A DNA stretch of 63,932 nt, the filler included, from Chrysochromulina tobinii (Eukaryota), in NCBI GenBank assembly GCA_001275005.1. It is 8 parts of 8 records of this genome, joined end to end, with 100 filler letters (N's around TTAATTAATTAA, not from the genome) between each part and the next. Parts side by side here need not be neighbours in the genome. Positions count along the whole stretch, not along the records: positions 48,544 to 62,123 come from JWZX01000230.1; 7 more parts are not named here. One strand, written 5' to 3'. Shown here in pieces: positions 41,373-63,073 of the stretch. The translations under genes and the position numbers were made by a program. Each line of letters opens with the position of its first letter. Positions within the stretch are counted from its first letter, which is position 1. Under the pieces are notes generated by a model that saw only the letters and a program-made list of their open reading frames with translations, was not told the DNA's origin and made no database searches.

Positions 41373-42436
41373 TCGACGATGTCGAGCATGGTCTCGAGCG
41401 CAGCCTTCTCGATCGTGCCCTTGACCTTCTTCTCGGACGTCATGTGCTTGAGCACCTTGAGCAGCTTCATCTTCTCGAAGAACTCGTCGCGTGTGATCAT
41501 GCCGTCCTCGCGCACGTCGAGGTACGCGAGCACCGAGCGCACATTGTTCTGGCGGAGGTCGCCCGAGCCACGGTTGATGAGCGCGTTGCAGCACTCTCTC
41601 TGCGCCTCGCGCACCTGCGCGACGGTGCACCCGCGCGAGCCGATCTTCATGCTGTTGTCCTTCTCGGCCTGCGCCTCCTTCTTCTTGTTGGGCACGAGCG
41701 CCGCGAACTGGATGATATCCTGGCACAGCAGCACCTGCGACAGCTCGAGGAAGCCAATCTCGTCGTCATTGTTCAGGTCCGCAAAGTCGCACAGGCACCA
41801 GAGTGTGCGGTCGTTGATGAACCACGGGCAGTGCGCCTCCTCCATGAAGAAGCGCTTGAGCTCCTCCGCCGTGAGCGACCCCTTGTGGTCGTCATCGATC
41901 CTGCGGAACCCGTCGGTCAGGCCGCGCTTCGAGAGCATCTCGACACGCTGCTTCATGTACTCGAACGCGAGCTTGAGTTCATCCATCGAGACTCCGTACT
42001 CCTTCTCGAGCATGACCGAGGCGCGCTCCTTGGCCTCGACCGCCGCGAGGCGCTCGAGGAAGTCCGCCGTCGGCCGCCCCGTCTCCGCAAGCATCTGCAG
42101 ATCCTGCGCCAGCTGGCGCCACTGCACCATCGCCGAGGGCTCGCCGTTTTGCAGCGGCACGCGCGTGAGGTACGGCTCGCAGACCTCGTTGAACTCGGCC
42201 TGAGTCATCGCAAGCTCGACCCACTGGTTGCCGAACGCGTTGCACAGCGCGCGGCGCATCGTCGCGAGGTCGAAGAAGCCCTTCTTCATGCGGTCGAAGC
42301 CGCCCATCAGGTTGCGCACGTCCAGGCGGCGTTTGTTGATGAAGAAGCACATGCGGTCCCAGATGGGCTCGCCCTCGCCCAGGCCCTCCGTGTCGAAGAC
42401 ACCCATGTCGCCGGGAAGCGTCGTGTCGATGCCCAT
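41373..42436 (-). CDS. Multi-EF-hand calcium-binding protein, 3'-truncated
   Basis: Loops FDRMKKGFFD, IDDDHKGSLTAEEL, ADLNNDDEIGFLEL, LDVREDGMITRDEF. Confidence 0.88.
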
Positions 42437-42777
42437 GGCTGCCGGGTGCGCGATGAGAGTGCCTTGACGCTTTTGGGGCTTGAGAGAAAACAAGTTGAGC
42501 CAATTTCATCGAAGTTGTTACACACGGCGCACCGATCTGGATTGCATGCATCCTGCAGTTTCAGGTCCGCTCATGTGAAAGGCAAATCACCTTCACGTAT
42601 TGCGTTCAATGTCATCATTTTGCATTTACAGACGCTGCCCCCAACTCTCTACAGTAATGTGATTGCTCTCGGCGTGGCGGGGACCACGGGAAGAGGGTAA
42701 TCACCAGAGCGACCCTCCAGCGACGAGCCGGCGACGGTCGCGCGGCCGTGGCTCCTAGTCCGAGCCCTCTCCTCCTC

Positions 42778-47842: not shown

Positions 47843-48351
47843 GTCTCACCTCGTGTTGCAGCCTCGCCTCCCGGCCAAAGGACTCGCGCTCGGCCGGCTG
47901 GCAAAAAGACAGCCTTTGGAAGCGCGGCTCGCTCGATTTACAGTTACGAACTCCACTTTCCCACAGGAACGGCTTCACTCGTACAATAGTATCGCCGGTC
48001 CGCTCAAGTCACGTCAAGAAGGCAACTAGCAAGACCGCGACAAGGCGCTGCGGTCCCCCGCCGCGCCGCACCCGCCGTCGAGTTACATTCCTCTCCGGCC
48101 AATACTTAATTAAATACTTGTACAGTCGAGTTGGCAAGCGACGCCAGCCCCATTTGGAAACATGAGTCGTGTTCTCTCGCGACCTGGGCAGCACGCCCCC
48201 GATATTGTCGCAAAGCAGCACGCCCCCGATATTGTCGCAACGCGCTCACTCCAACCGGTACGCGTAACGTATCTCATGTCGCAACTTTTGGCTCAACTCG
48301 TTTTCCTGCCCCAAAAGCGCATCGGCCTCCCTCATCGCGCACCCGGCAGCC

Positions 48352-48443
48352 ATGGGCATCGACACGACGCTTCCCGGCGACATGGGTGTCTTCGACACGG
48401 AGGGCCTGGGCGAGGGCGAGCCCATCTGGGACCGCATGGCCCA
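48352..48443 (+). CDS. N-terminus of a second copy of the EF-hand gene, cut by gap
   Basis: MGIDTTLPGDMGVFDTEGLGEGEPIWDRM, nucleotide-identical to the reverse complement of 42350-42436. Confidence 0.85.
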
Positions 48444-48838
48444 NNNNNNNNNNNNNNNNNNNNNNNNNNNNNNNNNNNNNNNNNNNNTTAATTAATTAAN
48501 NNNNNNNNNNNNNNNNNNNNNNNNNNNNNNNNNNNNNNNNNNNACTCAGTACTTGTGTAGACCGAGGGGAGCGGAGCCGTCCGTCGAGACGGTGGTGGAG
48601 TGAGCGTGGGGGGACCGCGAAGAAACTGAAAACTGAACACGACGCACCTGCCAGCGGTTCACGAAGTGTACGCTCGACTAGTCTATCCAAAATCTCGGCG
48701 CCATGCTGTTCCCCACACGTCTGTGAAATAGAGTCGCCGGGGTCGACCCGCGTAAGAGTCCCTCGGTTTTTTGCTGACCCAACGTGCTCATGTTTCCCGT
48801 GATCGGCTTCGTTCACGGGATTCTTATCTCGCCTCGCG

Positions 48839-51800
48839 ATGCCGACAGTCCTTCTTGCTGCCCTCGCCGCCGCGCTCGCGGACGCGCCGCCGCGCATCTT
48901 CGACCACATTTCGGTCACGGCGAGCGCCTCGTGGGCCAACGATCCCATCATCGAAGCGGCATCACTTCTCTACGGCGAGCTCGGCGGCCGAGGCGTGGCG
49001 TGGTTCCTCAAGGGCGTCGCAGGCCAACCCGGTTGTGAGGACGTGCGCTGCGCCGCCAGGGCGATCAGTTCGCTGAGCTTGCCGCCGCTTCAGGTCCGTG
49101 CGCTCGGCGCCGCTCTGGCCGCGCGGGTGGAGGCGCCCAAGGTGGAGGCCTGGGCGCAGCTCGCGGCCGCCGTGCCGGGCTCCTCACCCGACCGTGGAGC
49201 GCTCGCGCACGCGGCCGTGTGGCTCTGCACGTGCGACGGGCGCATCCACGTGGAGGTGGAGGATGCGCTGGCGGCGCTGGCAGTGCTCGTTGACTCACCC
49301 GAGGAGTGCCGCGAGGCGAGCGCCAGCGCCGTGCCCGCGGCGCTCGACCACGCGTTCGACAACGACAACGCGGGCGGACGCAGGAGCGCGGACGCCATTT
49401 CCACAGCTCCGTTACTGATCGCGTACGTCGACCCGCACGCCGGGGCTGCGATGGGCGCGGCAATGGCGGCGCTACTCGCCGTGCCACCCGCCACCGCGCG
49501 CATCGTGCTGCGCTACCGTCCCTCGGCCGCCGTTAGCCCGGTGCCTCTTCAGGGCTTTGGGACGGTCGTGCGGCTGAAGGCGTCCGAGTACAAGGTGGTG
49601 GACGACCGCGGCGTGGAGGCGGCGGCCGATGCGGCCGACGAGAGCGACGACGATGCCGTCGAGGGCGAACCGGCCGGAGGAGACGAGGCGCCTTCGTTTC
49701 TGCTGCGCAAGCGAGCGGGTGAGCCGCTCGTCGCGTGCATGCTGATTGCCTCCCTCATTGCGAGCGGGTGAGCCGCTCGTAGTTGCGACGGCGGTCACGC
49801 GAGTGCATGCTGATTGCCTCCCTCATTGCACGCAGGTGAGCCGCTCGTTGGCGACGGCGGCGACGGCTCGAGCCTCTCCGCCGCACGGCTTGGCGCTCTG
49901 AGCATGCAGGCGGCGGTGGCGGTGCTGCGCGCGCGCCGGCCGTTACCGACGCTCCGGGACGTGAGCGGGTTGCTCCCAAGCCTCGCACGAGCGCTCTCGC
50001 GCATTAATTTGAGCTCACCTGCCCACGAACCCCTCGTACGCTCGCTCGTGACGAACCCCTCGTGACGAACCCCTCGTGACGAACCCCTCGTGACGAACCC
50101 CTCGTGACGAACCCCTCGTGACGAACCCCTCGTGACACACTCCGAGCAATGCTGCTACCAGCATGCTAACTGCCGCTGATGGCCTGCCTGATTACCTCCC
50201 TCATCAGGTACGCTCGCTCATCGCGATCCGGCCGCTTTTGCAATCAGCATGCAACTCACTGCTGCTCAACGGCTTACCAATCGACCTCACCCGTGCGGAC
50301 TTGGCCCCTCTGATTACCTCTGATTACCTCTGATTACCTCTGATCACCTCTGATTACCTCTGATTACCTCATGCGTGTGGCCTTGGCGCCTCGAGCGCGC
50401 CTCCCATCCCACCACCCGCGATTGCATGCTGAGCGCACCTCCCATCCCTCCCTCATTGCATGCAGGTGCGGACTTGGTGCAGCACACGATGAAGCTCGTG
50501 CTCACCGAGGCGAACACAGCGGCCCAGCTCGTGCAGCTCGGCTTGCGCCCAACTGTCGTGAGCGCGCTGCTCACGACGGCGCCCCCGCCCCCGGTGCGCA
50601 TCGACGCCCGCAGCCTCGAGAGCGCCACGCTCTGGCTGAGTGACCTGAGCGCGCCTAATTTGGATGGGGGCTTCAAAACATGGCCCTCGGATCTAAGCTC
50701 GGCGCTTAAAAAGGGCCTTCGGGGCGCGCGCCAGTTCACAAGGCATAACCTGTTCACAGCCATCTTCGCCTTCGACCCGGCGACGATGCACGGCGCGCGC
50801 ACGGCCGGCTACGTGGCGACCATCCTGAAGCGGAGCGCGCCTCTTCGGATTGGGGTGCTTGCTCGCTCGGCGGACGGTAACGGAGATTCCAATCTGGCCA
50901 CGCGCGCTCTCGCGGGCACTTGCATGCTGATGGCCCCTGATTGCCCCCCTCCCACCCTCCCTAACTAGGTAGCGGAGATTCCAATCTGGCCACGCGCGCT
51001 CTCGTGCACTTGCATGCGGTGGGGGGCAAGGCGGCACTGATCGCTTTCCTGCGCACCCTCGGCGCACGGGCGGGGGCGGCAGTTGGAGCGCCGCGGCGGG
51101 CACCCGAGCTGGCGGCAGCACCGGTGGACGCAGCCGAGGAGGGGGACGCGGCGGGGGCGGACGAAAGTGATGCGCTGGCTGCAGCAAACACGGACGGCGA
51201 CGCGCAGGCGGAGGCGGGGAGCGCTCAGGACGACGCGACGACGGTGGCCGAGGGCGATGCGCGTCGTACTGAGCGTGCCTCCGCTGTTCTTGAGCCGACG
51301 GTCCCACGGCAGGTGCTCGTGATTGCATGCTGATTGCCTCCCTCATTACCAGCTCTTGAGCCGACGGTCCCACGGCAGGTGCTCGTGATTGCATGCTGAT
51401 TGCCTCCTTCATTACCAGCTCTTGAGCCGACGGTCCCACGGCAGGTGCTCGTGGACGCTGTGGCGGCGGCGCTCGAGGTCATCGCGGGGGGCGCCAAGGG
51501 GGGAGGAGGAGGCAAGAAGGGCAAGAAGCGCAAGGCCAAGTCGGCGGCGGCAGAGGAGGAGGCGACGGCGTCGGCAGGCTCGGAGGCGGCGAATGCCACG
51601 GACGGTAGCCGCCCGGCACGGCGCGCGGAGGAGGTCCTCCTGCAGCTCGGCATGATCGGCGAAGGCATAGGGCTCGAGGCCGCCGAGCGTGTGGAAGCCA
51701 TGGACTTGGCCGCCAACCTGCTCGGGCTACCTGCCTCCCTACCCGTCGCCCTTCTCAACGGACTGGTGCTGATCCCCGAGGCGCCCATTACGGCGCTCTC

Positions 51801-54800
51801 AGGCGAGGCGCTCTGGGGGGAGATGATTGCACTTGCAATCACGAGAGAAGCTCAGGTGATTGCATCCCTCATCAGGCGGCGATCGTGCAGTACGATTGGC
51901 CGTCTGATTGCGTCTGATTGCGTCTGATTGCGTCTGATTGCGCTCACGAGAGAAGCTCAGTTTGTCCGTGCGCTCATCGAGGAGGGCGCCCTGATGATTG
52001 CCTGTGATGGCCTCTGAGGACCTCTAATCGCCACTGTCATCAGGTTGTCCGTGCGCTCATCGAGGAAGGTGCCCTGAGCGATGGCGCCAACCTTACCGGC
52101 ACCGAGGCGACGGCGAGATCGGGCGAGATGCATAGTGCGAGATCGGGCGAGCTCCATAGTGCGCTGCTCGAGGTGCTCATGTCAAGGGGGAAGGTGGCGC
52201 CCTTTTATTCTGCACAGCTCGCAGTAGCTGCCAAGGAGGAGACTGTGCGCGATGCCATCCGTGCGGCGGGGGCGGCGGCGGGTGGAGAGGCGGATGGGCA
52301 GGCAGCGCCGTATTGGGCGGATGGGCAGGCAGCGGCGAGCGGCAAGGCGTCTGCGGCAGCAGAGGCGACCCAGTTGGCGGGAGTGGTACGCATGCACGGG
52401 GAGCGATTGGATTGGCGAGCGCTTGCATGCTGATGGCTTCTTAATGGCTTCTGATTGCCCTCCTCCTACCCTCCCTAATTAGGTACGGGTCCTCGAGGAG
52501 CGCGTATGGAATCCCGAGTCGCCTTCGAATGTGCATGCCGACTCGCGCCGACTGCATGCACGCCGGCTGGTGCTCAACCCTAATTTGGAACGCTGTGCTC
52601 GAGAGGGGAGCTGCCTCGAGATTGCGGGGATAGGGGATGGCGCCGCGCTGCACTTGGTTGCGATCGTCGATCCTCTCACGGTGCAAGCGCACAAGATAGC
52701 TGCCCTGCGGATCGCATGCTGATTACCTCCCTCATTACCTCGGCAGGTGCACGCGCACAAGATAGCTGCCCTGCTGATCGCTCTGCGGGAGGAGATGCAT
52801 GCACGCGTGACGCTCCTCCTCGCACCGAAATCTCCGCCGAGCTCCGACGATCTCGCCGAAGGCGCCGTGATGGGCAGCCTTTGGTCCCCCGAGCCATCCG
52901 CTGCCTCGATGCCCCTCGATGCCTTCCACAGGTGATTGCTCTGGATTGCTCTGGATTGCTCTGGATGGCTCTTGATTGCGCATGATTGCGCATGATTGCT
53001 CTTGATGGACCCTTGATGGCTTTTGATGGGATGGGCACGTCTCTCTCTATCTCTCTCTCCGCGTTCCACAGCTTCGCCGTGCAGCTCGATCCGCTCAAGA
53101 CGGCGCCTCCCGCGGCCACCTTTGAGATGTTTCGGCCGAGGGCGCCGCAGACGCTCACGCTCACGCCCGAGGCGCCACCAGGTGATTGCATCTGATTGCG
53201 TCTGATTGCGTCCCTCATCAGACGCTCACGCTCCGCCCGAGGCGCCACCAGGTTGGGTGATGACGATCTCCGCCGCGAGCTCCGACCTCGACAATCTGCG
53301 GCTGCACACGCTACAGTCCAGCCAGTCCGTGCATGCAGCCTACTCGCTCAGCGCCTTGCTTGTCACCGGAAAGTGTGTGGATCGCTCGGGGGGTGGTGTC
53401 GGCGGTGCCAAGGGCGGCGGCGGCGGCGGCGGCGGCGGCGGCAAGAAGGCAGCTCATGGCAAGAAGGGTAAGCAGCAGCGGCGGTGGCGAGGGAGCACTG
53501 ATGACCTCTCTAATTACCTCTGATGGCCTCTCTAATTACCTCTGATGGCCTCTCTAATTACCTCTAATGGCCTCTCTAATTACCTCTGATGGCCTCTCTA
53601 ATTACCTCTGATGGCCTCTGCACGACTCTGAGGGTGGCCAACACTGATTGCCCCTTTCATCAGGCAAGCGGCGGCGCGAGATGACCGAAGCGGATGCGGA
53701 TGGGCACGCCGCCTCCGCCGGAGGGAATGCATGCACAGCGGCGGCCCTCGAGCTGCATCGGGCGCTCGGTACGGCGCTCACTACGGCGCGAGCTCCGACG
53801 GCCGAGATGGGCGCGAGCCGCGATCTCGTCAATCTCGTCAATCTCGTCCACGCGCCCGCTTCGGATACCCTCGTCATCGGCTCCGAGTATGCGCTGCACC
53901 CCGACTGCACCCCGATCGACCTCTGGCATGTCTCGGCGCATGCACGTGCTCACCACGGCGCCCTGCCCCCCCCCTCCCCACAGGTACTTTCAATTGCAGG
54001 CGCCGGGGCCTGGGCTGTGGTCAATCTCGCTCGCCTCCGGCGCCGAGCTCCTGAGCGCCCGCCACGGCGCCGCTACAGGCGCCCGCTACGGCGCCGCCGT
54101 CCCGGGCAGCCGTTACGCCGCGCCTCCGGCCCGCGCCCTCCCCGTGCCGCTCCTCTCGTATACCGGTGCGACGCTCGACATTCTCGTCGGCGCAGACCCA
54201 AATCATGGCTTGAGCACACGCACCACCGCCGCCCCGGCTCTCGCCGCCGCCCCCGCCTCCGCCGCCGCCGGTACGGCGCTCGACGAAACAGTCCACATCT
54301 TCTCCCTCGCATCGGGGCTGCTCTATGAGCGCTTCCTACGCATCATGATGAAGACGGCCGTTGAGCGCGCGAGCCGCCCACTGAAGTTTTGGATCCTTGG
54401 CAACTTCCTCTCGCCCGCCTTCCGTCACGCTGTGAACAGCGGCGCGCTCGCAACGGCCGTTGGCGCTCAGGTGATTGCATCCCTCATCAGGTGGCGATCG
54501 TGCTCTACGATTGGCCGCCTGAGTGCGTCTGAGTGCGCCCGAGTGCGTCTGATTGTGGATGATTGCGTCCCTCATCAGGTGGCGATCGTGCAGTACGATT
54601 GGCCGTCTCACCTGCGAGAGCAGACGGAGAAGCAGCGGCTCATCTGGGGGTACAAGATCCTGTTTCTCGACGTGCTCTTCCCACAGGTGAAAGGCGATGA
54701 TTGCGATGGAGTCCGACGAATCTCCGATGAATCTCCGATGGATCTCCGACGAATCTCCGATGGGCTGTCTCGTCCTCACCTTGCCTTCATCGCAGTCGCT

Positions 54801-56125
54801 CCGCAAGATCATCTTCGTCGAGGAGCTGATTGCCTCTTGATTACCTCTGATGAGCCCTAATTGCCTCCGTCGCAGTCGCTCCGCAAGATCATCTACGTCG
54901 ACGCGGATCAAATCGTCCAGGGCGACCTCGCAGAACTTTGGGATAGGTGATTGCCACGGAAGGACACTAATGGGCACCCTGATTGCCACCCTGATTGCCG
55001 CCCTGATTGCCATCCTGATTGCCATCCTGATCGTCCAACGGGACCTCGCCCCTGATTGCCACCCTGATGACCTCCGATGCTCCCCAATGTGGCACTTCAC
55101 ACCCAACCGAACTTCACACCCAACCGAACTTCACACCCAACCGAACTTCACACCTTTGCGGCAGGCCTCTCCTCGGCGCTCCGGTGGCCATGACGCCCTT
55201 TTGCCGCGCCGACCCAAATATGGCAACCAAGGGCTTCCGCTTTTGGGAGACCGGCTTCTGGGCAGGCGCGCTCGGCGGCAAACCATACCACATCTCCGCG
55301 CTCTTCGTCGCGGATCTGGCCGCCTTCCGATCGATTCGGGCAGCAGGGGGGGCGAGCGCGCCGTCGTGGGCAAGCGAGCAGGGCGTGGGTGACATTTACC
55401 GGTCGACGTATCAGTCGCTCACAGCTGACCCGAGCTCGCTTGCCAACCTCGACCAGGACTTACCCAACTACCTGCAGGGCATGGTGATTGCGTCTGATTG
55501 CGTCTGATTGCGTCCCTCATCAGGACGTACCCAACTACCTGCAGGGCATGGTGATTGCGTCTGACTGCGTCTGATTGCGTCCCTCATCAGGTGCCCATCC
55601 ACTCCTTGCCCGAGGAGTGGCTCTGGTGTGAGTCCTGGTGCGGCAACGCCTCGCAGTCCGCTGCGAAGACGATCGACCTGTGTAACAACCCGATGACCAA
55701 GGAGCCCAAGCTTGAGCAGGCGAGGCACTCTTCATTACCCTTGATTACCCTTGATTGCTCTTAATTAACCCGATGACCAAGGAGCCCAAGCTCGAGCAGG
55801 CGAGGCACTCTTGATTACCCTTGATTACCATTGATTGCTCTTAATTAACCCGATGACCAAGGAGCCCAAGCTTGAGCAGGCGAGGCACTCTTGATTGCTG
55901 TGGATTGCTGTGGATTGCTGTGGATTGCTCTTGATTGTACTTGATTGCGCTTGATTGCTCGGGCAGGCGAGGCGCATCGGAGGGGAGCGCTGGGCCAAGA
56001 TCGACGCCGAGCTCGAAGCCGCCCTCGGGGGGGGAGCCTCCGCCGCGGTAGGTTCTGAAGGTGGCGCTCACGGCGGCGCGAATATGTCACCATCGGCAGC
56101 ACTCATGGAGAAGACGGAGCTCTGA
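48839..56125 (+). CDS. UGGT: UDP-glucose:glycoprotein glucosyltransferase, 18 exons, ~1625 aa
   Basis: Signal peptide; [103 protein letters not shown]-terminal KTEL. Introns 49719-49835, 50036-50207, 50293-50465, 50877-50968, 51313-51444, 51856-52043, 52386-52482, 52681-52746, 52932-53071, 53182-53251, 53468-53663, 53887-53983, 54471-54578, 54687-54875, 54947-55164, 55484-55590 and 55720-55966 (GC-AG) give one continuous frame. Confidence 0.95.
55484..55590 (+). mobile_element. Two copies of the 40-nt intron module GTGATTGCGT(CTGATTGCGT)2CCCTCATCAG around a duplicated exon end
   Basis: Copies at 55484-55523 and 55551-55590, near-identical copy at 53182-53221, and a 20-nt form at 51856-51875 and 54471-54490. 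Mobility is inferred. Confidence 0.55.
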
Positions 56126-56332
56126 CGCACCGCTGGAAACGTGAAAGTGACCACTTACGTTTTACGAGTTCGGAACTTACCCCGTGGGTTATAATCCTCG
56201 GGCCGATCATCTTCTCATAATGACGACAAATGCGTCGTTCCCCAGCCGATGCAGGCTACATTGTTTTGAGCACGGATGTGCGAGCTTGGCTTTTTTGTGA
56301 GAAAAAAAAAGGGTTCACACGAACGAGTCTCC

Positions 56333-57610
56333 ATGGCTTCCCAGAGCCCACAAGACCCATGCATGGACGAAGATACCATGGCAAGGCAGTTCCCGCGCCT
56401 GCAAGGCGCCGGCATGAGCGGCCCACTAGGAGCAGGCGGCTACGCTAGCGGCGAACACATCGGCTCATCGAATGCCCGGGCGCGTGCCGCCGCGAGCATG
56501 AACACGGTCTGCACAGCCACGGAAGTGGAAGCAGTTCTCGACATCGACGCAGTTGAAGTGGAAGCAGTTGATGACATGGACGACTCCATCGAGGTTGAAG
56601 TTGTACTCGTTGACGAGTCCCGGATGGACACAGGCTCCTCGTCGACGCCACGAGTTTCGACAGATGACGTGCAGCACCTCAGGGCGATCAAGGCAAGGGC
56701 TGCCGCGGCAGCGGAGGGGCTGGAGCTGGTGCCGTCGTCGAAGAACCAGACGGGCTTCAAGGGCGTGACCTTGACTCGTGGCAGGTACTATGTGGACGTC
56801 TGTGAGAACGGCATGACGCGCCACCTCGGGGGCTTTGCAACGCGAGAGGAGGCAGCCTTGTGCTATGCAAGGCACATTGGGGCGGAGCGAGCGGCGGCAG
56901 AGGCGGCGAAAGAGAGAGGCGAGGGGCTGAATACGACAAAGCCGCTCACAGCAGATGAGGCCAGGGCTGCCGCGGCAGCGGAGGGGCTGGAGCTGGTGCC
57001 GTCGTCGAAGAACCAGACGGGCTTCAAGGGCGTGACCTTGACTCAGGGCAGGTACAACGTGGACGTCTATGAGAACGGCAAGCAATCACGCAACTTTGGC
57101 GGCTTTGCAACGCCAGAGGAGGCAGCCTTGTGCTATGCAAGGCACCTTGGGGCGGAGCGAGCGGCGGCAGAGGCGGCGAAAGAGAGAGGCGAGGGGCTGA
57201 ATACGACAAAGCCGCTCACAGCAGATGAGGCCAGGGCCGCCGCGGCAGCGGAGGGGCTGGAGCTGGTGCCGTCGTCGAAGAACCAGACGGGCTTCAAGGG
57301 CGTGAACTTGATTGGTGGCAAGTATTACCTGCAAGTCTATAAGAACGGCAAGCAATCACGCAACTTTGGGGGCTTCGCAACGCCAGAGGAGGCAGCCTTG
57401 TGCTATGCAAGGCACCTTGCGACGGAGCGAGCGGCGGCAGAGGCGACGGGTGAGGGGCCACAGCCGCTCACGGTGGATGAGGCGAAAGAGATTGATGGGA
57501 GGCACACCTCAGGACGCGGCTCTCTACAACCCGTTGAACATCCCGCGCCGCCTGGTCCGAGTTGTGAACGTGAACATCCCGCGCCGCCTGGTCCGAGCAG
57601 TTCCGAATAG
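56333..57610 (+). CDS. Protein with three tandem AP2/ERF-like DNA-binding domains
   Basis: TGFKGV...GRY.V....G....LGGFAT.EEAALCYAR three times, ~270-bp near-identical repeats. Confidence 0.8.
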   Translation: MASQSPQDPCMDEDTMARQFPRLQGAGMSGPLGAGGYASGEHIGSSNARARAAASMNTVCTATEVEAVLDIDAVEVEAVDDMDDSIEVEVVLVDESRMDTGSSSTPRVSTDDVQHLRAIKARAAAAAEGLELVPSSKNQTGFKGVTLTRGRYYVDVCENGMTRHLGGFATREEAALCYARHIGAERAAAEAAKERGEGLNTTKPLTADEARAAAAAEGLELVPSSKNQTGFKGVTLTQGRYNVDVYENGKQSRNFGGFATPEEAALCYARHLGAERAAAEAAKERGEGLNTTKPLTADEARAAAAAEGLELVPSSKNQTGFKGVNLIGGKYYLQVYKNGKQSRNFGGFATPEEAALCYARHLATERAAAEATGEGPQPLTVDEAKEIDGRHTSGRGSLQPVEHPAPPGPSCEREHPAPPGPSSSE

Positions 57611-57748
57611 CGCCCGTTTGACGAATAGCGCCCGTTGGACGAATTGCGCCCGTTGGACGAATAGCGCCCGTTAGACGAATTGCGCCCGTTGGACGAATAG
57701 CGCCCGTTTGACGAATTGCGCCCGTTGGACGAATAGCGCCCGTTGGAC
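57605..57748. repeat. 18-bp tandem repeat GAATWGCGCCCGTTDGAC x8
   Basis: Read directly; the first unit contains the stop codon of the AP2 gene. Confidence 0.9.
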
Positions 57749-58709
57749 GCACTCCGCAGCTGCAGCCCACTGTTCACGGCTAACCCTAGCCCACTGTTCA
57801 CGGCCAACCCTAGCCCACTGTTCACGGCCATGCACGACGAGCAGCGCAAGCAGCAAGGATCGTCTTCATTCTTGGCGCCGTCGCCTGCGCTGCCACCATC
57901 CACCGTCATTTGGCGCACATCGAACAAGCGGCCGGTTGCAGAGGCCTTTGGAGATCTCGGCCTTTTGGAGATCTCGGCCTCTGGAGATCGGGGCTGGCCA
58001 CAAACGATGGGTCTCTCTCTGCAAGGCAATGAGCGCAAGCAGCAACATCCAACGCGGCAGCAGCTGCTCTCAGTCCGGCAGGAGGAGCAGGTGCTCATGC
58101 AGCTACAGCCCATGGCACCTGATGAGCAGTGCCCTCTACATATGCTGTGGGAATAGTAGCCCAATAGTAATAAATAGTAATGCCCCAAATGCGGCGGCAA
58201 GCGAGGACAACCCCCGACACCGGCTCAGCAACCGCGATCGGAGCCCGTTGCGGCGCCTCCCTTGCCCTTGTTTTTCAACTACACCGCTATTCCGTTTTCC
58301 GATTCTTTTGCACTGGTCTGTGTCGGGACGGCAGGGGCTAGCGACGAGCGTGCTGGTCTGAACGGAACGAGGCGGGGGGTCGAACCCGAGGGGGGGACAC
58401 ACAGTGACACAGAAGAGTTTCGAATTGGTATTGGAGACGTCTGGAATGGCCGCATTACTGAATGGCCGATGCAACTTCCCCCGGTTGCCGCCGTGCAAGC
58501 GTGCACCGTCCGGAGCGATAAATATACTTTATAGCGTGACCTACGCACAAAGGCGTATACGTTACATGAGGAAAAGAAATAGGATACGGTATCAGAGTGT
58601 AATAAAGATACATCAACTCATCAAGCAGTTGTGCATCAATTTGGTATTTGCAGAGATACGGCGCGCAGATTCTGTCCGGTCGGCGGCGGATTACTCGAGG
58701 ACATGCCAC

Positions 58710-58942
58710 TTGACCCAAGGGGGAGTGGTCTACTATATTTTTCATGTTTATAAGGCCCCACCCCTACACCTGTTTGGGAATTGAATGGTTGACCCAAGGG
58801 GGAGTGGTCTACTATTTTTCATGTTTATAAGGCCCCACCCCTACACCTGTTTGGGAATTTGAATGGTTGACCCAAGGGGGAGTGGTCTACTATTTTTCAT
58901 GTTTATGAGAAGGCCCTAACCCCACACCTGTTTGGGAATTGA
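58710..58942. repeat. ~78-bp tandem repeat x3
   Basis: TTGACCCAAGGGGGAGTGGTCTACTAT...CACCTGTTTGGGAATT at 58710, 58789 and 58867. Confidence 0.9.
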
Positions 58943-59618
58943 AATTTGAATGGCTCGAGGAACGCGCGTTTTATAAACGCGATGCCGACCGAGAAATATA
59001 TGTCTTATGTGTAATGTCGTATACGCAAAACGGTGAATCAAAATCGCCGCCCCGACGCCTACATAAGCCGAATCCGCCTCAATCGTGCCGCGCCGAAATT
59101 TCCCCGGTACTAGCCGAGAGGCAGCTCTACGGGCCTATACACATGCGGTCACGTGACAGCCCGACCGTCGACGTCGACACGTCGGCATAGTATCGCGCCG
59201 GCATAACGCCGCGTCTACCTCACTGCATCGCATGCAACACAAAGACTCACAATCTCGCGCAGCACACTCACAACGCACCGATGTCTCGTGGCACGACCCC
59301 GCGCCGTGCGCTCTCATCCCCCCCCACAGGATCTCCCCTGGATCTCCCCTGGATCTCCCCTGACCTCCCCTGGATTTCCCATCTCTCCCGAGGTCTCCGG
59401 AGTATCTCTATGCTGCGAACCGCACGAGATCGCGCACGAGTTCGCGCACGAGATCACATCCTCGATTTGGTCTGACTCTCGCACCGTCCGCGCGGCAGAG
59501 CAAATTCCGTTACGAATTCGTCAAATTCCGTTACGAATTCGTCGTCGGCCGATCCGTAAGCAGGTAAGCAGGTGCGCCTGCGCCGAGATCAACCCCGACG
59601 CTACCCGACCCGACCAGC

Positions 59619-60740
59619 TCAGATCAGAGACGAGTCCGGTGGCGGTGGCGGTGGTGGCGAAAAGGGGGCTCCGAACTGGCTGAACCCGCCAGGCGGCGGT
59701 GGCGGAGGGGAGGCGAACGACTCGCCGAAGCCCGCCCCGAACGACGGGGCCGACGCGAAACCAAACGTCGGGTCGGGCGGCGGGGGAGGCGGGGGCTCGC
59801 TGAAGTTGAACATATCGTTGGGCGCCGCCGCGGCGCCTCCCGCGCCCGGCGGCATCGCCCGAATCATGTTGGCGTAGGCCTGCTTGAACTTTTGTGAGCC
59901 CTGCTTCTCGAGCTCGACTTTGTACGTCTTGTTCGCGGCGTCGAACGATTTGATCCAACCGATCGACTCGGACCCATCGCTCCTCTTGACGTAGACGGCA
60001 TCGCCCACGTTGAAGCCCGGGGCGATGCCCGAGGTCGAAGGCCTCTTGCCCTTGACCGCTTTCGACTCCCGAAGTGCCTCCTGCGACACAACCTTGTACA
60101 GGCACGTGCCAGCGTCGTCTTCGTCCTCGAGCTCGACACGGTAGAGGCCCGTCTGCCTGTCGTACTCGACGACGCATCCGATCGACTCGTCCCCGCTGCT
60201 GCGCATGCAGTACACCATTTGGCCGACGGCGAAGCGCTGCAGCCGCAGTGGCTCTTCCAGATTCCGGTTTGGCAAGGGTTCGGAGGGTGACTCATTTTGG
60301 TTCGATGTGGAACGGAGCTCGTATCCGGCCATCGCGAGTCCCGAGGAAGCCAGGTTGCCGGCCGTGGAAACCCCTGACGCCGCCGCCGCCGCCGCCGCCG
60401 AAGCAGCAGCAGCCGCGGCCTTTGCTACCGCAGTAGGGTCCTTTGCGGCGTTGGCCGCAGCAGCGGCGGCGGCAGAGGCTGTGGCAGCGGCAACGGACGA
60501 GGCCGAGGAGGCCAGGCCGCCGGCCATCGCCAATCCCGAGGAGGCAAAAGCTGAGGCTCTCTCGGCCGCACTTTGGTAAGTGGGGAGCTGCTCATCTGGG
60601 TTATCTTCATTCTCAAACGCAGGGTTCGAACTGTCGGACCTGTCGACGAGGGTGCCAATGACGGTGTCACTCTTCGACTTGCGCCGCATGGATTTTGCCC
60701 GGAAGCTGCCCGAGCGAGCCAGGCTGATGAGGGACGACAT
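59619..60740 (-). CDS. Hypothetical protein with two Tudor/SH3-like beta-barrel repeats and Pro-rich tail
   Basis: FAVGQMVYCMRSSGDESIGCV and FNVGDAVYVKRSDGSESIGWI. Confidence 0.65.
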   Translation of the reverse strand: MSSLISLARSGSFRAKSMRRKSKSDTVIGTLVDRSDSSNPAFENEDNPDEQLPTYQSAAERASAFASSGLAMAGGLASSASSVAAATASAAAAAAANAAKDPTAVAKAAAAAASAAAAAAASGVSTAGNLASSGLAMAGYELRSTSNQNESPSEPLPNRNLEEPLRLQRFAVGQMVYCMRSSGDESIGCVVEYDRQTGLYRVELEDEDDAGTCLYKVVSQEALRESKAVKGKRPSTSGIAPGFNVGDAVYVKRSDGSESIGWIKSFDAANKTYKVELEKQGSQKFKQAYANMIRAMPPGAGGAAAAPNDMFNFSEPPPPPPPDPTFGFASAPSFGAGFGESFASPPPPPPGGFSQFGAPFSPPPPPPPDSSLI

Positions 60741-61032
60741 GCTCCGAGCTGACGCGGCGGTGTCGGCGGCGACGGCGCTGATCCCCTTTCGCGGCGGCAC
60801 CCCCGGCTCGTCACACTTGATGACGAGACACAGCCGACGGACGTTCACAAGAAAGGTGTTAAACGATGCACGACCTTTTCAACTGTGAATTGGTGCCTAC
60901 TCGGACTTTCGGTACAGTCGTTTCACACCTGTGAGCAACCTCATCATCCCCCAAGACTTCGTCCAACGAAACCGGTCCGCGGCTTCGCCTCTTACATTGT
61001 AGAGGCGCGCTTCCCTTTGGACGACGTGCAGA

Positions 61033-61767
61033 ATGAAGCTGCGCCTCCTCTGCCTACATTCTTTTCGGCTCTCCGGCGATTCGCTGCGCAAGCAGATGGC
61101 CGTATTCTCCAACTTTGCGTCCAGCATCGACGACATTTGCGAGCTGCACTACATGGACGGGAGCTTGCGCTGCGACGCCGAGGCAGAGGGCAAGCTCCCT
61201 CCGATGCTCAAAAAGGCTTTCGGCCCGCCGTACTACGAATGGTGGAATGCTCGACAGCACCACGACTCGGATGCTCTCGTGTACGACGGCATGCAAGCGA
61301 CGCTCGACAAGGTAGCGGCTCACGTGGCCGCTGAGGGACCGTTCGACGGCGTCCTCGGCTTCTCGCAGGGAGGATCCCTCGCCCATCTGCTGTGCGTGCT
61401 CGCGCAGCGCGGAGCCATCTCCATGCCGCCGTCACTGTTCTGCGTGGTCATCTCTGGACGAGCATCCCGCCACCACGAGCATTTGGAGCTCATGGAGGCG
61501 GCACGCAAGGCACCGTTGAAGCTTCCCTTGTGCGTCATTTACGGCGGGAAAGACACCGAGGTGCCGCCGCAAGAGACGCGGGCGCTCATGGAGACGATCG
61601 ATGAGGCGTCCCTGTGTACGATCTTCTTGCCCGAGGGCGGCCATCGAGTACCAAATCTCAACGAAGCGCAGGCGCAAGCGGTCCGCGCATTCCTCGAGGC
61701 GCGGCGCGATCAGATGGAGAGCGCCAATCTTGAGATGTGTATGGGCGGACCCGGAGGCCCAACATAG
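61033..61767 (+). CDS. FSH1/OVCA2-family serine hydrolase
   Basis: LRLLCLHSFR, GPFDGVLGFSQG, GGKD, GGHRVP. Confidence 0.92.
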   Translation: MKLRLLCLHSFRLSGDSLRKQMAVFSNFASSIDDICELHYMDGSLRCDAEAEGKLPPMLKKAFGPPYYEWWNARQHHDSDALVYDGMQATLDKVAAHVAAEGPFDGVLGFSQGGSLAHLLCVLAQRGAISMPPSLFCVVISGRASRHHEHLELMEAARKAPLKLPLCVIYGGKDTEVPPQETRALMETIDEASLCTIFLPEGGHRVPNLNEAQAQAVRAFLEARRDQMESANLEMCMGGPGGPT

Positions 61768-62000
61768 TGAGTGTGTGAAAAACGAGACGTTCACACTGAA
61801 TTCTGTTCGTTCCTCGGCGTTCTTCGCTCCGAACCCGGCCCAAAGGATTTGCTAAGAACAATCTTCGAGTGATTCGCACAAGTTGGCAGAAAAAGATGGG
61901 TGTGGGCTTCAACGAGGACAACTTTGCGCCTGAAGCTTGAAGGCATGACAGGCTTGAGAGGGGCTGCGAGAGTTACCGGCACAGTTTTAGTTGAGGTTAT

Positions 62001-62116
62001 TGCTCAACACGGATCTAATAGTCACACCACATGCTCAACACGGACTTAGCAAGTCCGTGTTGAGCTAAGTCCGTGTTGGGCATATTCACAGCTCACTAAG
62101 TCCGTGTTGAGCATAT
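62001..62116. repeat. Direct and inverted GCTCAACACGGA motifs with a perfect 15-bp hairpin
   Basis: GCTCAACACGGACTT-AGC-AAGTCCGTGTTGAGC at 62033-62065; five motif copies next to the contig end. Confidence 0.75.
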
Positions 62117-63073
62117 GGTTTTTNNNNNNNNNNNNNNNNNNNNNNNNNNNNNNNNNNNNNNNNNNNNTTAATTAATTAANNNNNNNNNNNNNNNNNNNNN
62201 NNNNNNNNNNNNNNNNNNNNNNNGCTGCCTGTTCGCAGCTCAAGCCCTCGCTCCACGCTAGCATCTCTCGCAGCCTGTAGGCCTCATCTGACAGAGGGAG
62301 CACCTCTCGTAGTCTGTTGGCCTCCTCCGAGGGAGGGTCGAGCTGCAATGCAGGGTTCCTGCTGGGCATGGCAGGGGCAGTTGTTGTGGGCCCCATAAGT
62401 CGCAGGGGAGGAGCAGCAGGGCCGCAGAGGAGCGCCGCTGCCGCTCGCTTTCGGCTGCGTCCAGGACCCAACGGGTCGAGCCCACTGCACATGTCCTGGA
62501 TCTTGCTCTGGGCAGAGGTGGCGGCGTCGGATGCGGTTGTTGAGATGGGGCTGGGTTGCGCTCGGGATCTGCGACCTCTTCCAGCACAGAGATTGCGCGT
62601 TGCATTGCTCGCTCTGCATGGTGAGTTACGCTGGTCTCCGCGTCAGCTCTGTCTGCTGCGCGCGGACACAGGGTATCGTGAGCGGAGCGAGATGTGGTGA
62701 CGCGCGGGGGGGCCGGGGCAACGGAGAGCGCGCGTATGTGACTGTGTGCACGCCCGCCCCAGGCGCGTGCGCGCGCCATCGCCAGAGAGTGCTGCGCGCA
62801 ACAACAGCAGTGGGACGCACCCGACATGGATGCGAACGGATTCTCCAGCTCGAACAGCTCCCTTTGAAACACACCGATACGACGCGCGCTTCGCCCATAG
62901 GAATTCCATCACACAAACCCAGATACAACCCTGCCCAGGACGTCCCCCACACCCCACTCCCAGCGCCCCTCCCCGCGCTACTGTACCGGTACGGGCCTTC
63001 GGCGCGCGCGCGGGTCCTCAGCGCGGCACACAGGGTTGTGTAAGTGTCGCGCGAAAACGCCTCGTGTAAACTC

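Follow-up and report, generated by a model that had tools for sequence, protein, structure and literature searches.

The stretch of DNA analysed here (hereafter the window; 63,932 nucleotides, GC content about 63%) consists of eight Chrysochromulina tobinii contigs with N linkers between them. Its GC content and its occurrence in freshwater or mixed-culture material fit a Chrysochromulina-like haptophyte. One of these contigs, at 48544-62123, carries a gene for UDP-glucose:glycoprotein glucosyltransferase (UGGT; 48839-56125), which lies on the plus strand, as do all of its features described below. A model with 18 exons and 17 introns translates into a single open frame of 1625 amino acids with one terminal stop and a C-terminal KTEL, so that the intron numbers 6 and 13 used in an earlier sequence-only reading of this DNA are correct. 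Several of the exon joints fit RNA contigs. The homologues of the protein harbour PF18404, a label that comes from their precomputed domains, and the closest named match is that of Prymnesium parvum (63% over one exon). Rfam gave no matches on the UGGT contig, and motif scans of viral contigs gave none either. The only match in the motif scan of prokaryote genomes was an ordinary bacterial contig and was regarded as a chance hit, while the metagenome scan returned at least one confirmed locus among the 595 candidates listed.

Many introns of the UGGT gene have the same build, in which an insert is enclosed by two duplicates. The target duplications range from 8 to 51 nt, and the intron motif occurs 43 times in sense and twice in antisense orientation within the gene. 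Intron 17 (55720-55966), modelled as GC-AG, contains three 80-nt tandem units, and its 3′ part resembles intron 9 (69 nt at 88%). The first part of intron 16 (55484-55590) has 40 of 41 nt in common with intron 10; at the same position, the relatives P0121-P0134 read into a different intron body. Proteins of relatives also read into introns in exon 7 (around 52200) and exon 13 (around 54165), at sites that are intron-free in the window, and these extra introns are further lineage-specific gains or losses in the gene. In addition, a 155-nt inverted copy (92%) of gene-like sequence was found at a contig end elsewhere in the window (42350-42503 and 48288-48438, about 6 kb apart).

Intron 6 (51856-52043) is a GT-AG intron of 188 nt in which four segments follow each other. 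The first, module A (51856-51943), provides the 5′ splice site and holds a 30-nt tag (51876-51905) that matches the start of exon 14. It is followed by X′ (51944-51960), a duplicate of the last 17 nt of exon 6 (X; 51839-51855, ending in GCTCAG), with 17 of 17 nt identical both in the window and in L001, an independent allele. The next segment, Y′ (51961-51998), is a 38-nt duplicate of the start of exon 7 (35 of 38 nt identical), whose first letters are TT in the window and GT in L001. Finally, module B (51999-52043) is a motif-rich insert with the 3′ splice site. Taken together, X′ and Y′ preserve the old junction of exons 6 and 7 as it was without an intron.

The intron is spliced: in an RNA contig of X18, a diverged strain, 51851 is joined to 52040, which corresponds to a skip of 188 nt. 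In an RNA contig of X13 the match ends at 51851 with 65 letters remaining, as splicing predicts, the joint itself being unlisted. Nor is the insert an assembly artefact. Contigs of both DNA runs (X4 and X8) showed no differences from the window over 51424-51929 and 53939-55123 at single-copy depth, although these runs may derive from the source culture and are then not independent of the window. Only four variant places in 6.6 kb were found in X4 and X8 among those listed. The insert is also carried by L001, which is identical to the window at 402 of 411 positions in exon 6. Exact sharing of 31 nt or more between loci is expected to break contigs in such assemblies. The contigs across both tags were unbroken, no loose ends or joints stopping at the tag edges were present among those listed, and at 54605 and 54608 the total depth equalled that of the local contig alone, with no other contig there. 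These data speak less fully against diverged copies than against exact ones.

The sequence-only reading had proposed that intron 6 was templated from the region of intron 13 in the same gene. Its observations were confirmed: the first 20 nt of intron 6 (51856-51875) are identical to the start of intron 13 (54471-54490), these being the two exact copies in the window; the next 30 nt match the start of exon 14 (54579-54608) at 29 of 30 positions; and GCTCAG precedes both introns. The 20-mer alone is weak evidence, as it is a family motif: with four mismatches or fewer it recurs at nine further places in the window, and its bin depth sums to about 11,600, compared to about 32-35 for single-copy contigs. 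The 30-nt tag, on the other hand, lies far outside the background and is beyond chance. When the other 16 introns were compared with non-adjacent exons, the best match with one mismatch was 10-17 nt long, and in 100 triplet shuffles of intron 6 the longest match to a non-adjacent exon was 16 nt. The 30-mer is not a dispersed repeat as far as the 63.9-kb window and the contigs listed go, since no copy beyond the gene was seen, and the window holds no further copy of the tagged unit.

Intron 13 (54471-54578) is 108 nt long, in frame and free of stops, and its retention would add 36 residues to the protein. It contains a duplicate of the exon 14 start (54491-54520; 27 of 30 nt). The exon 14 start itself encodes ten residues that align to the QY.WP motif of the homologues and is the ultimate source of the tag. 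The match between introns 6 and 13 is continuous, with 91 nt at 90% in the window (to 54465-54555) and 103 nt at 86% in L001. The copy thus does not consist of two separate pieces of 20 and 30 nt but spans most of intron 13, beginning at the first base of the donor and stopping 4-12 nt before its last. Both the TC dinucleotide and the GGAT repeat unit of the internal copy of intron 13 recur in L001 intron 6, which identifies intron 13 as the template and rules out exon 14 as the direct one. The exon 14 30-mer is thus present in intron 6 because intron 13 already contained its duplicate. Of the earlier proposal, the donor in cis was upheld, whereas the template was the duplicate inside intron 13 and not exon 14. 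Summed over the readings considered below in which it is the donor, intron 13 is very probably the source of the tag in cis.

The tag is predicted to form a hairpin of about 17 bp with its flanks (−23 kcal/mol, z about −4, for a fold window chosen post hoc). The predicted stability is −20 to −23 kcal/mol in the intron copies compared to −14 in the exon. The hairpin of intron 6 is internal and does not consist of terminal inverted repeats. Its loop contains a dinucleotide that differs between alleles, the AG/TC site.

Allele states were read from gene calls whose proteins run through intron starts; the proteins come from metagenome assemblies, so that the counts do not represent independent samples. 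Among 47 proteins that read through the intron 6 site, 22 were intron-less, 24 had module A and one had Y′ and B only. The proteins lacking intron 6 read into other introns and must therefore derive from genomic DNA. Intron 13, in contrast, was tagged in all 55 proteins that read past the end of exon 13 (the chimera-like P0146 not counted), and sister-type proteins with a tagged intron 13 exist. An intron-less protein and a tagged protein both lie on a 3752-nt contig, inferred to be the same one. In a tree of exon 6 (42 of 48 rows; six rows of less than 90 aa, including P0177 and P0182, were omitted) the module-A and intron-less groups are split at one branch with a support of 93/96, which corresponds to one change, though the tree has a midpoint root only and the bootstrap is unsettled. 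P0177 has sister-type residues in exon 6 and yet contains module A; it is a recombinant, a chimera or a parallel gain. P0182, the protein with Y′ and B only, was considered as an ancestral intermediate but not adopted as one, being a single protein on a 550-nt contig with a derived residue common to the module-A alleles. It is equally likely to have arisen by a deletion between the two 17-nt repeats or by collapse in the assembly.

Since the tag is coding sequence in exon 14, and given the states of the sister lineage, these comparisons lend good support to the order exon 14, intron 13, intron 6, and the direction from intron 13 to intron 6 proposed earlier holds. The data also support intron 6 as a recent, lineage-specific gain: 22 of 47 proteins are without it and an intact copy of the junction lies inside it, the root of the tree being weak. 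Compared to the first reading, the direction is now better supported, whereas microhomology and generality are weaker.

How was the copy made? The reading that we favour, to which we give an even chance, is that the first 88 bases of intron 6 were copied from intron 13 by a template switch at the DNA level during repair of a staggered break. The start of exon 14 would first have been duplicated into intron 13, prior to the split of the two lineages. A staggered break near the junction of exons 6 and 7 would then have exposed an end GCTCAG(GT) that annealed at the donor junction of intron 13, 2.6 kb downstream, from where some 96-104 of the 108 nt would have been copied. The return would have taken place upstream of the point of departure, through a 9-mer common to exon 6 and the donor tail or through a shorter match, TCA/TTGC, giving rise to X′. 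A separate duplication-plus-insert event (Y′ and B), before or after this step, would have provided the acceptor, and ectopic gene conversion and repeat slippage would later have swapped variants between the copies. As GT...AG removes the insert cleanly, intron 6 could have been kept under purifying selection. The order of these steps is our reconstruction around four observations, namely the copy, the 17-nt duplication, the sister-lineage states and the splicing.

The junctions bear on this reading in different ways. At the entry, 8 nt are common to the sites of introns 6 and 13. However, five of these eight letters (CAG|GT) are forced by the splice consensus, and of the two intron pairs out of 136 that share six exon-end letters, one (introns 9 and 14) does so without copying, so that the case for priming by microhomology is weaker than put forward earlier. 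At the exit, the candidate return point is the 9-mer GATGATTGC in exon 6 (51822-51830), identical to the donor tail at 54558-54566. It is the single exonic occurrence in 4878 nt of exons and lies 25 nt before the splice site of intron 6. What lies between the 9-mer and X′ has no match in exon 6, and a return at this point therefore needs later remodelling. A template switch in cis is suggested by the short shared words at both ends. For intron 6, clean reverse splicing, by which same-gene copies are usually explained, is excluded because the copy does not include the acceptor end of its donor and is accompanied by a target duplication. Insertion of a whole intron was not seen, as the last 4-12 nt of intron 13 with its AG are missing from intron 6, and the insertion was not seamless, being flanked by the 17-nt duplicate of the exon 6 end.

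Because the copy covers nearly all of intron 13, an RNA template is a serious rival, although we consider it clearly less probable than the switch on DNA and on the whole unlikely. Here the excised intron 13 or the nascent pre-mRNA would have been reverse-copied into a nick at the end of exon 6 by a reverse transcriptase or an RNA-using repair polymerase, in a target-primed manner or by template switching, leaving the 17-nt duplication behind. A copy that starts at the first base of intron 13 and stops 4-12 nt before its acceptor is what an RNA template predicts as well, and the Pro at the junction in P0160 and P0171 (Ala in the window) is nearer the end of the donor. The strong sense bias of the intron motif within the gene points in the same direction. 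Target-primed reverse transcription moreover typically leaves target duplications of variable length. A model in which templates are switched during reverse transcription has already been proposed (PMC3443670). The start of the copy and its strand are, however, explained by selection for splicing, and a candidate second copy in the gene, of intron 4 from intron 7 (see below), starts inside its donor at a 9-nt shared word.

It is improbable that a generic motif insert founded intron 6 and only later acquired the tag, through ectopic conversion by intron 13 between the motifs that flank both. These motifs occur in high copy number, and exchange between the two introns is likely anyway, since AG and TC are both found at both of them. 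At intron 6 the window has AG, whereas L001 and seven double-tag alleles have TC (Leu); at intron 13 the window has TC and P0225 and P0247 have AG (Gln). Two intron 6 alleles read Thr at this site, an intermediate state. These combinations require that the introns underwent ectopic conversion, that insertion was repeated or that identical changes happened twice, and conversion would be the simplest account. A micro-inversion was ruled out, the reverse complement of AG being CT. Against a late arrival of the tag, all 19 module-A alleles that are long enough to show it are tagged, and the other five end at the tag start.

Even less probable is that the tagged intron 13 is a mobile introner-like element and that intron 6 is one of many copies which happens to lie in the same gene by chance. 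The strong predicted hairpin of the tag in the intron copies is reminiscent of fungal introner-like elements (PMC3609843), and introners have been reported from a Chrysochromulina (10.1101/2022.06.06.494994). However, no other tagged copy is present in the 63.9 kb, and single-copy contigs run unbroken across both tags, with few variant places among those listed. An assembly chimera of two look-alike introns is very improbable and largely refuted: such chimeras may occur, as would be indicated by P0146, in which exon 6 is directly followed by intron 13 and then by exon 14, and by P0150, with an intron 6-like start at intron 13, but both DNA runs and L001, with its private changes, contain the insert, and 24 of 47 proteins carry module A.

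Whether the copy of module A founded intron 6 or extended an existing intron is a nearly even choice, and module A may have preceded module B or followed it. That A and X′ can work alone as an intron is shown by intron 10. In L001, A-type units were added to an intron 8 that already existed, at its 5′ end, and addition to pre-existing introns therefore occurs. Introns 7 and 8 of L001 also contain additional duplicate-plus-insert units (1201-1270 and 1546-1657) with no counterpart in the window, and its intron 5 has a single 66-nt unit in place of two. Comparison of these alleles indicates that the duplicate-plus-insert process is active between close alleles. The direct joint in P0146, where intron 13 and exon 14 come straight after exon 6, is either an assembly chimera or a real deletion via recombination between the two copies.

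Only one of the 17 introns of the gene carries a tag from a non-adjacent exon, and it was chosen because its donor was in view; therefore, no cis bias can be inferred from it. With the figure of one intron per gene given for C. tobin in PMC4580454 as a rough proxy, random placement would put the donor in the same gene in about 16 of 17,000 cases. Intron 4 (50877-50968) may be a second, untagged copy from within the same gene. Its 3′ half matches intron 7 (52386-52482; L001 1293-1348) at 52 of 56 positions when L001 is used. The switch lies at a 9-nt shared word, and intron 7 is present in sister proteins. Intron 4 is absent in one (P0164) of two proteins that span the site, where collapse of a long duplicate is possible. 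Six reciprocal best intron pairs cover 12 of the 17 introns, a pattern that family structure alone could give, and a comparison of intron similarity within the gene and with other contigs is not a fair test, with 16 partners against only four.

We tentatively raise the possibility, which we think unlikely, that intron gain in this haptophyte lineage mostly draws on neighbouring introns within the same gene, by microhomology-based copy-paste and with ongoing exchange between the copies. Intron 6 would then be the case revealed by its exon tag, and intron 4 with the other reciprocal pairs would be untagged cases. If true, intron birth would be driven by a local mechanism that needs no transposase and is at work in present-day populations. 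Most newly gained introns are described in PMC4202315 and PMC3443670 as being of unknown source, and intron 6 is a rare case that reveals its donor, its recipient site and the direction of copying. Since the lineage has several intron and insert polymorphisms in the UGGT gene, the share of cis donors and the question of DNA versus RNA would be directly measurable from a long-read genome and a few strains.

Templated insertions in break repair have flanking direct repeats and microhomology at the junctions and involve polymerase theta or a similar enzyme. Like these, the insert of intron 6 is flanked by direct repeats. Its candidate microhomology comprises the partly forced 8 nt at the entry and, at the exit, the 9-mer, which is offset by remodelled sequence. 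In Daphnia pulex, the repair of staggered double-strand breaks has been described as a route to new introns (PMC3443670, PMC4202315). As in Daphnia, direct repeats flank the insert and further repeats accumulate inside young introns; the source of most Daphnia inserts is given as unknown in these papers, whereas that of intron 6 is an intron of the same gene. Introns can also be gained when a genomic segment with an AG|GT site is duplicated in tandem (PMC3443670). X′Y′ (51944-51998) likewise duplicates an uninterrupted CAG|GT junction, but, unlike in tandem-duplication introns as outlined there, both working splice sites of intron 6 come from the added modules A and B.

The introners of a Chrysochromulina sp. 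have 4-bp duplications and many copies in unrelated genes (10.1101/2022.06.06.494994). The intron 6 unit resembles these elements, as far as the available part of that source describes them, in having its own 5′ splice site, a target duplication and motifs shared across introns, and its tag has an introner-like, stable predicted hairpin. It differs in the 17-nt length of its duplication and, within the window and the contigs listed, in its presence as two copies in a single gene.

Same-gene intron copies have been reported from Oikopleura dioica, with four nearly identical pairs (PMC3879977), and from fungi, with 82 duplications (PMC3609843), and were ascribed to reverse splicing or segmental duplication. 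As in these cases, intron 6 resembles an intron of the same gene while the flanking exons are unduplicated, the exon sequence shared at introns 6 and 13 being limited to the six exon-end letters. In contrast to those copies, the copy in intron 6 is partial and is accompanied by a 17-nt target duplication, a tag that names the donor, polarity from a sister lineage and later exchange. We found no report of the intron 6 case or of cis copying in haptophytes in a search that extended to open sources, subscription papers and introner supplements, which may include this motif family, lying outside it. Same-gene copies, repeat-flanked gains and tandem-duplication gains are thus already described individually. 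What is new with respect to the literature searched is their combination in a single intron: a tagged and polarised donor from the same gene, a long target duplication and later exchange between the copies.
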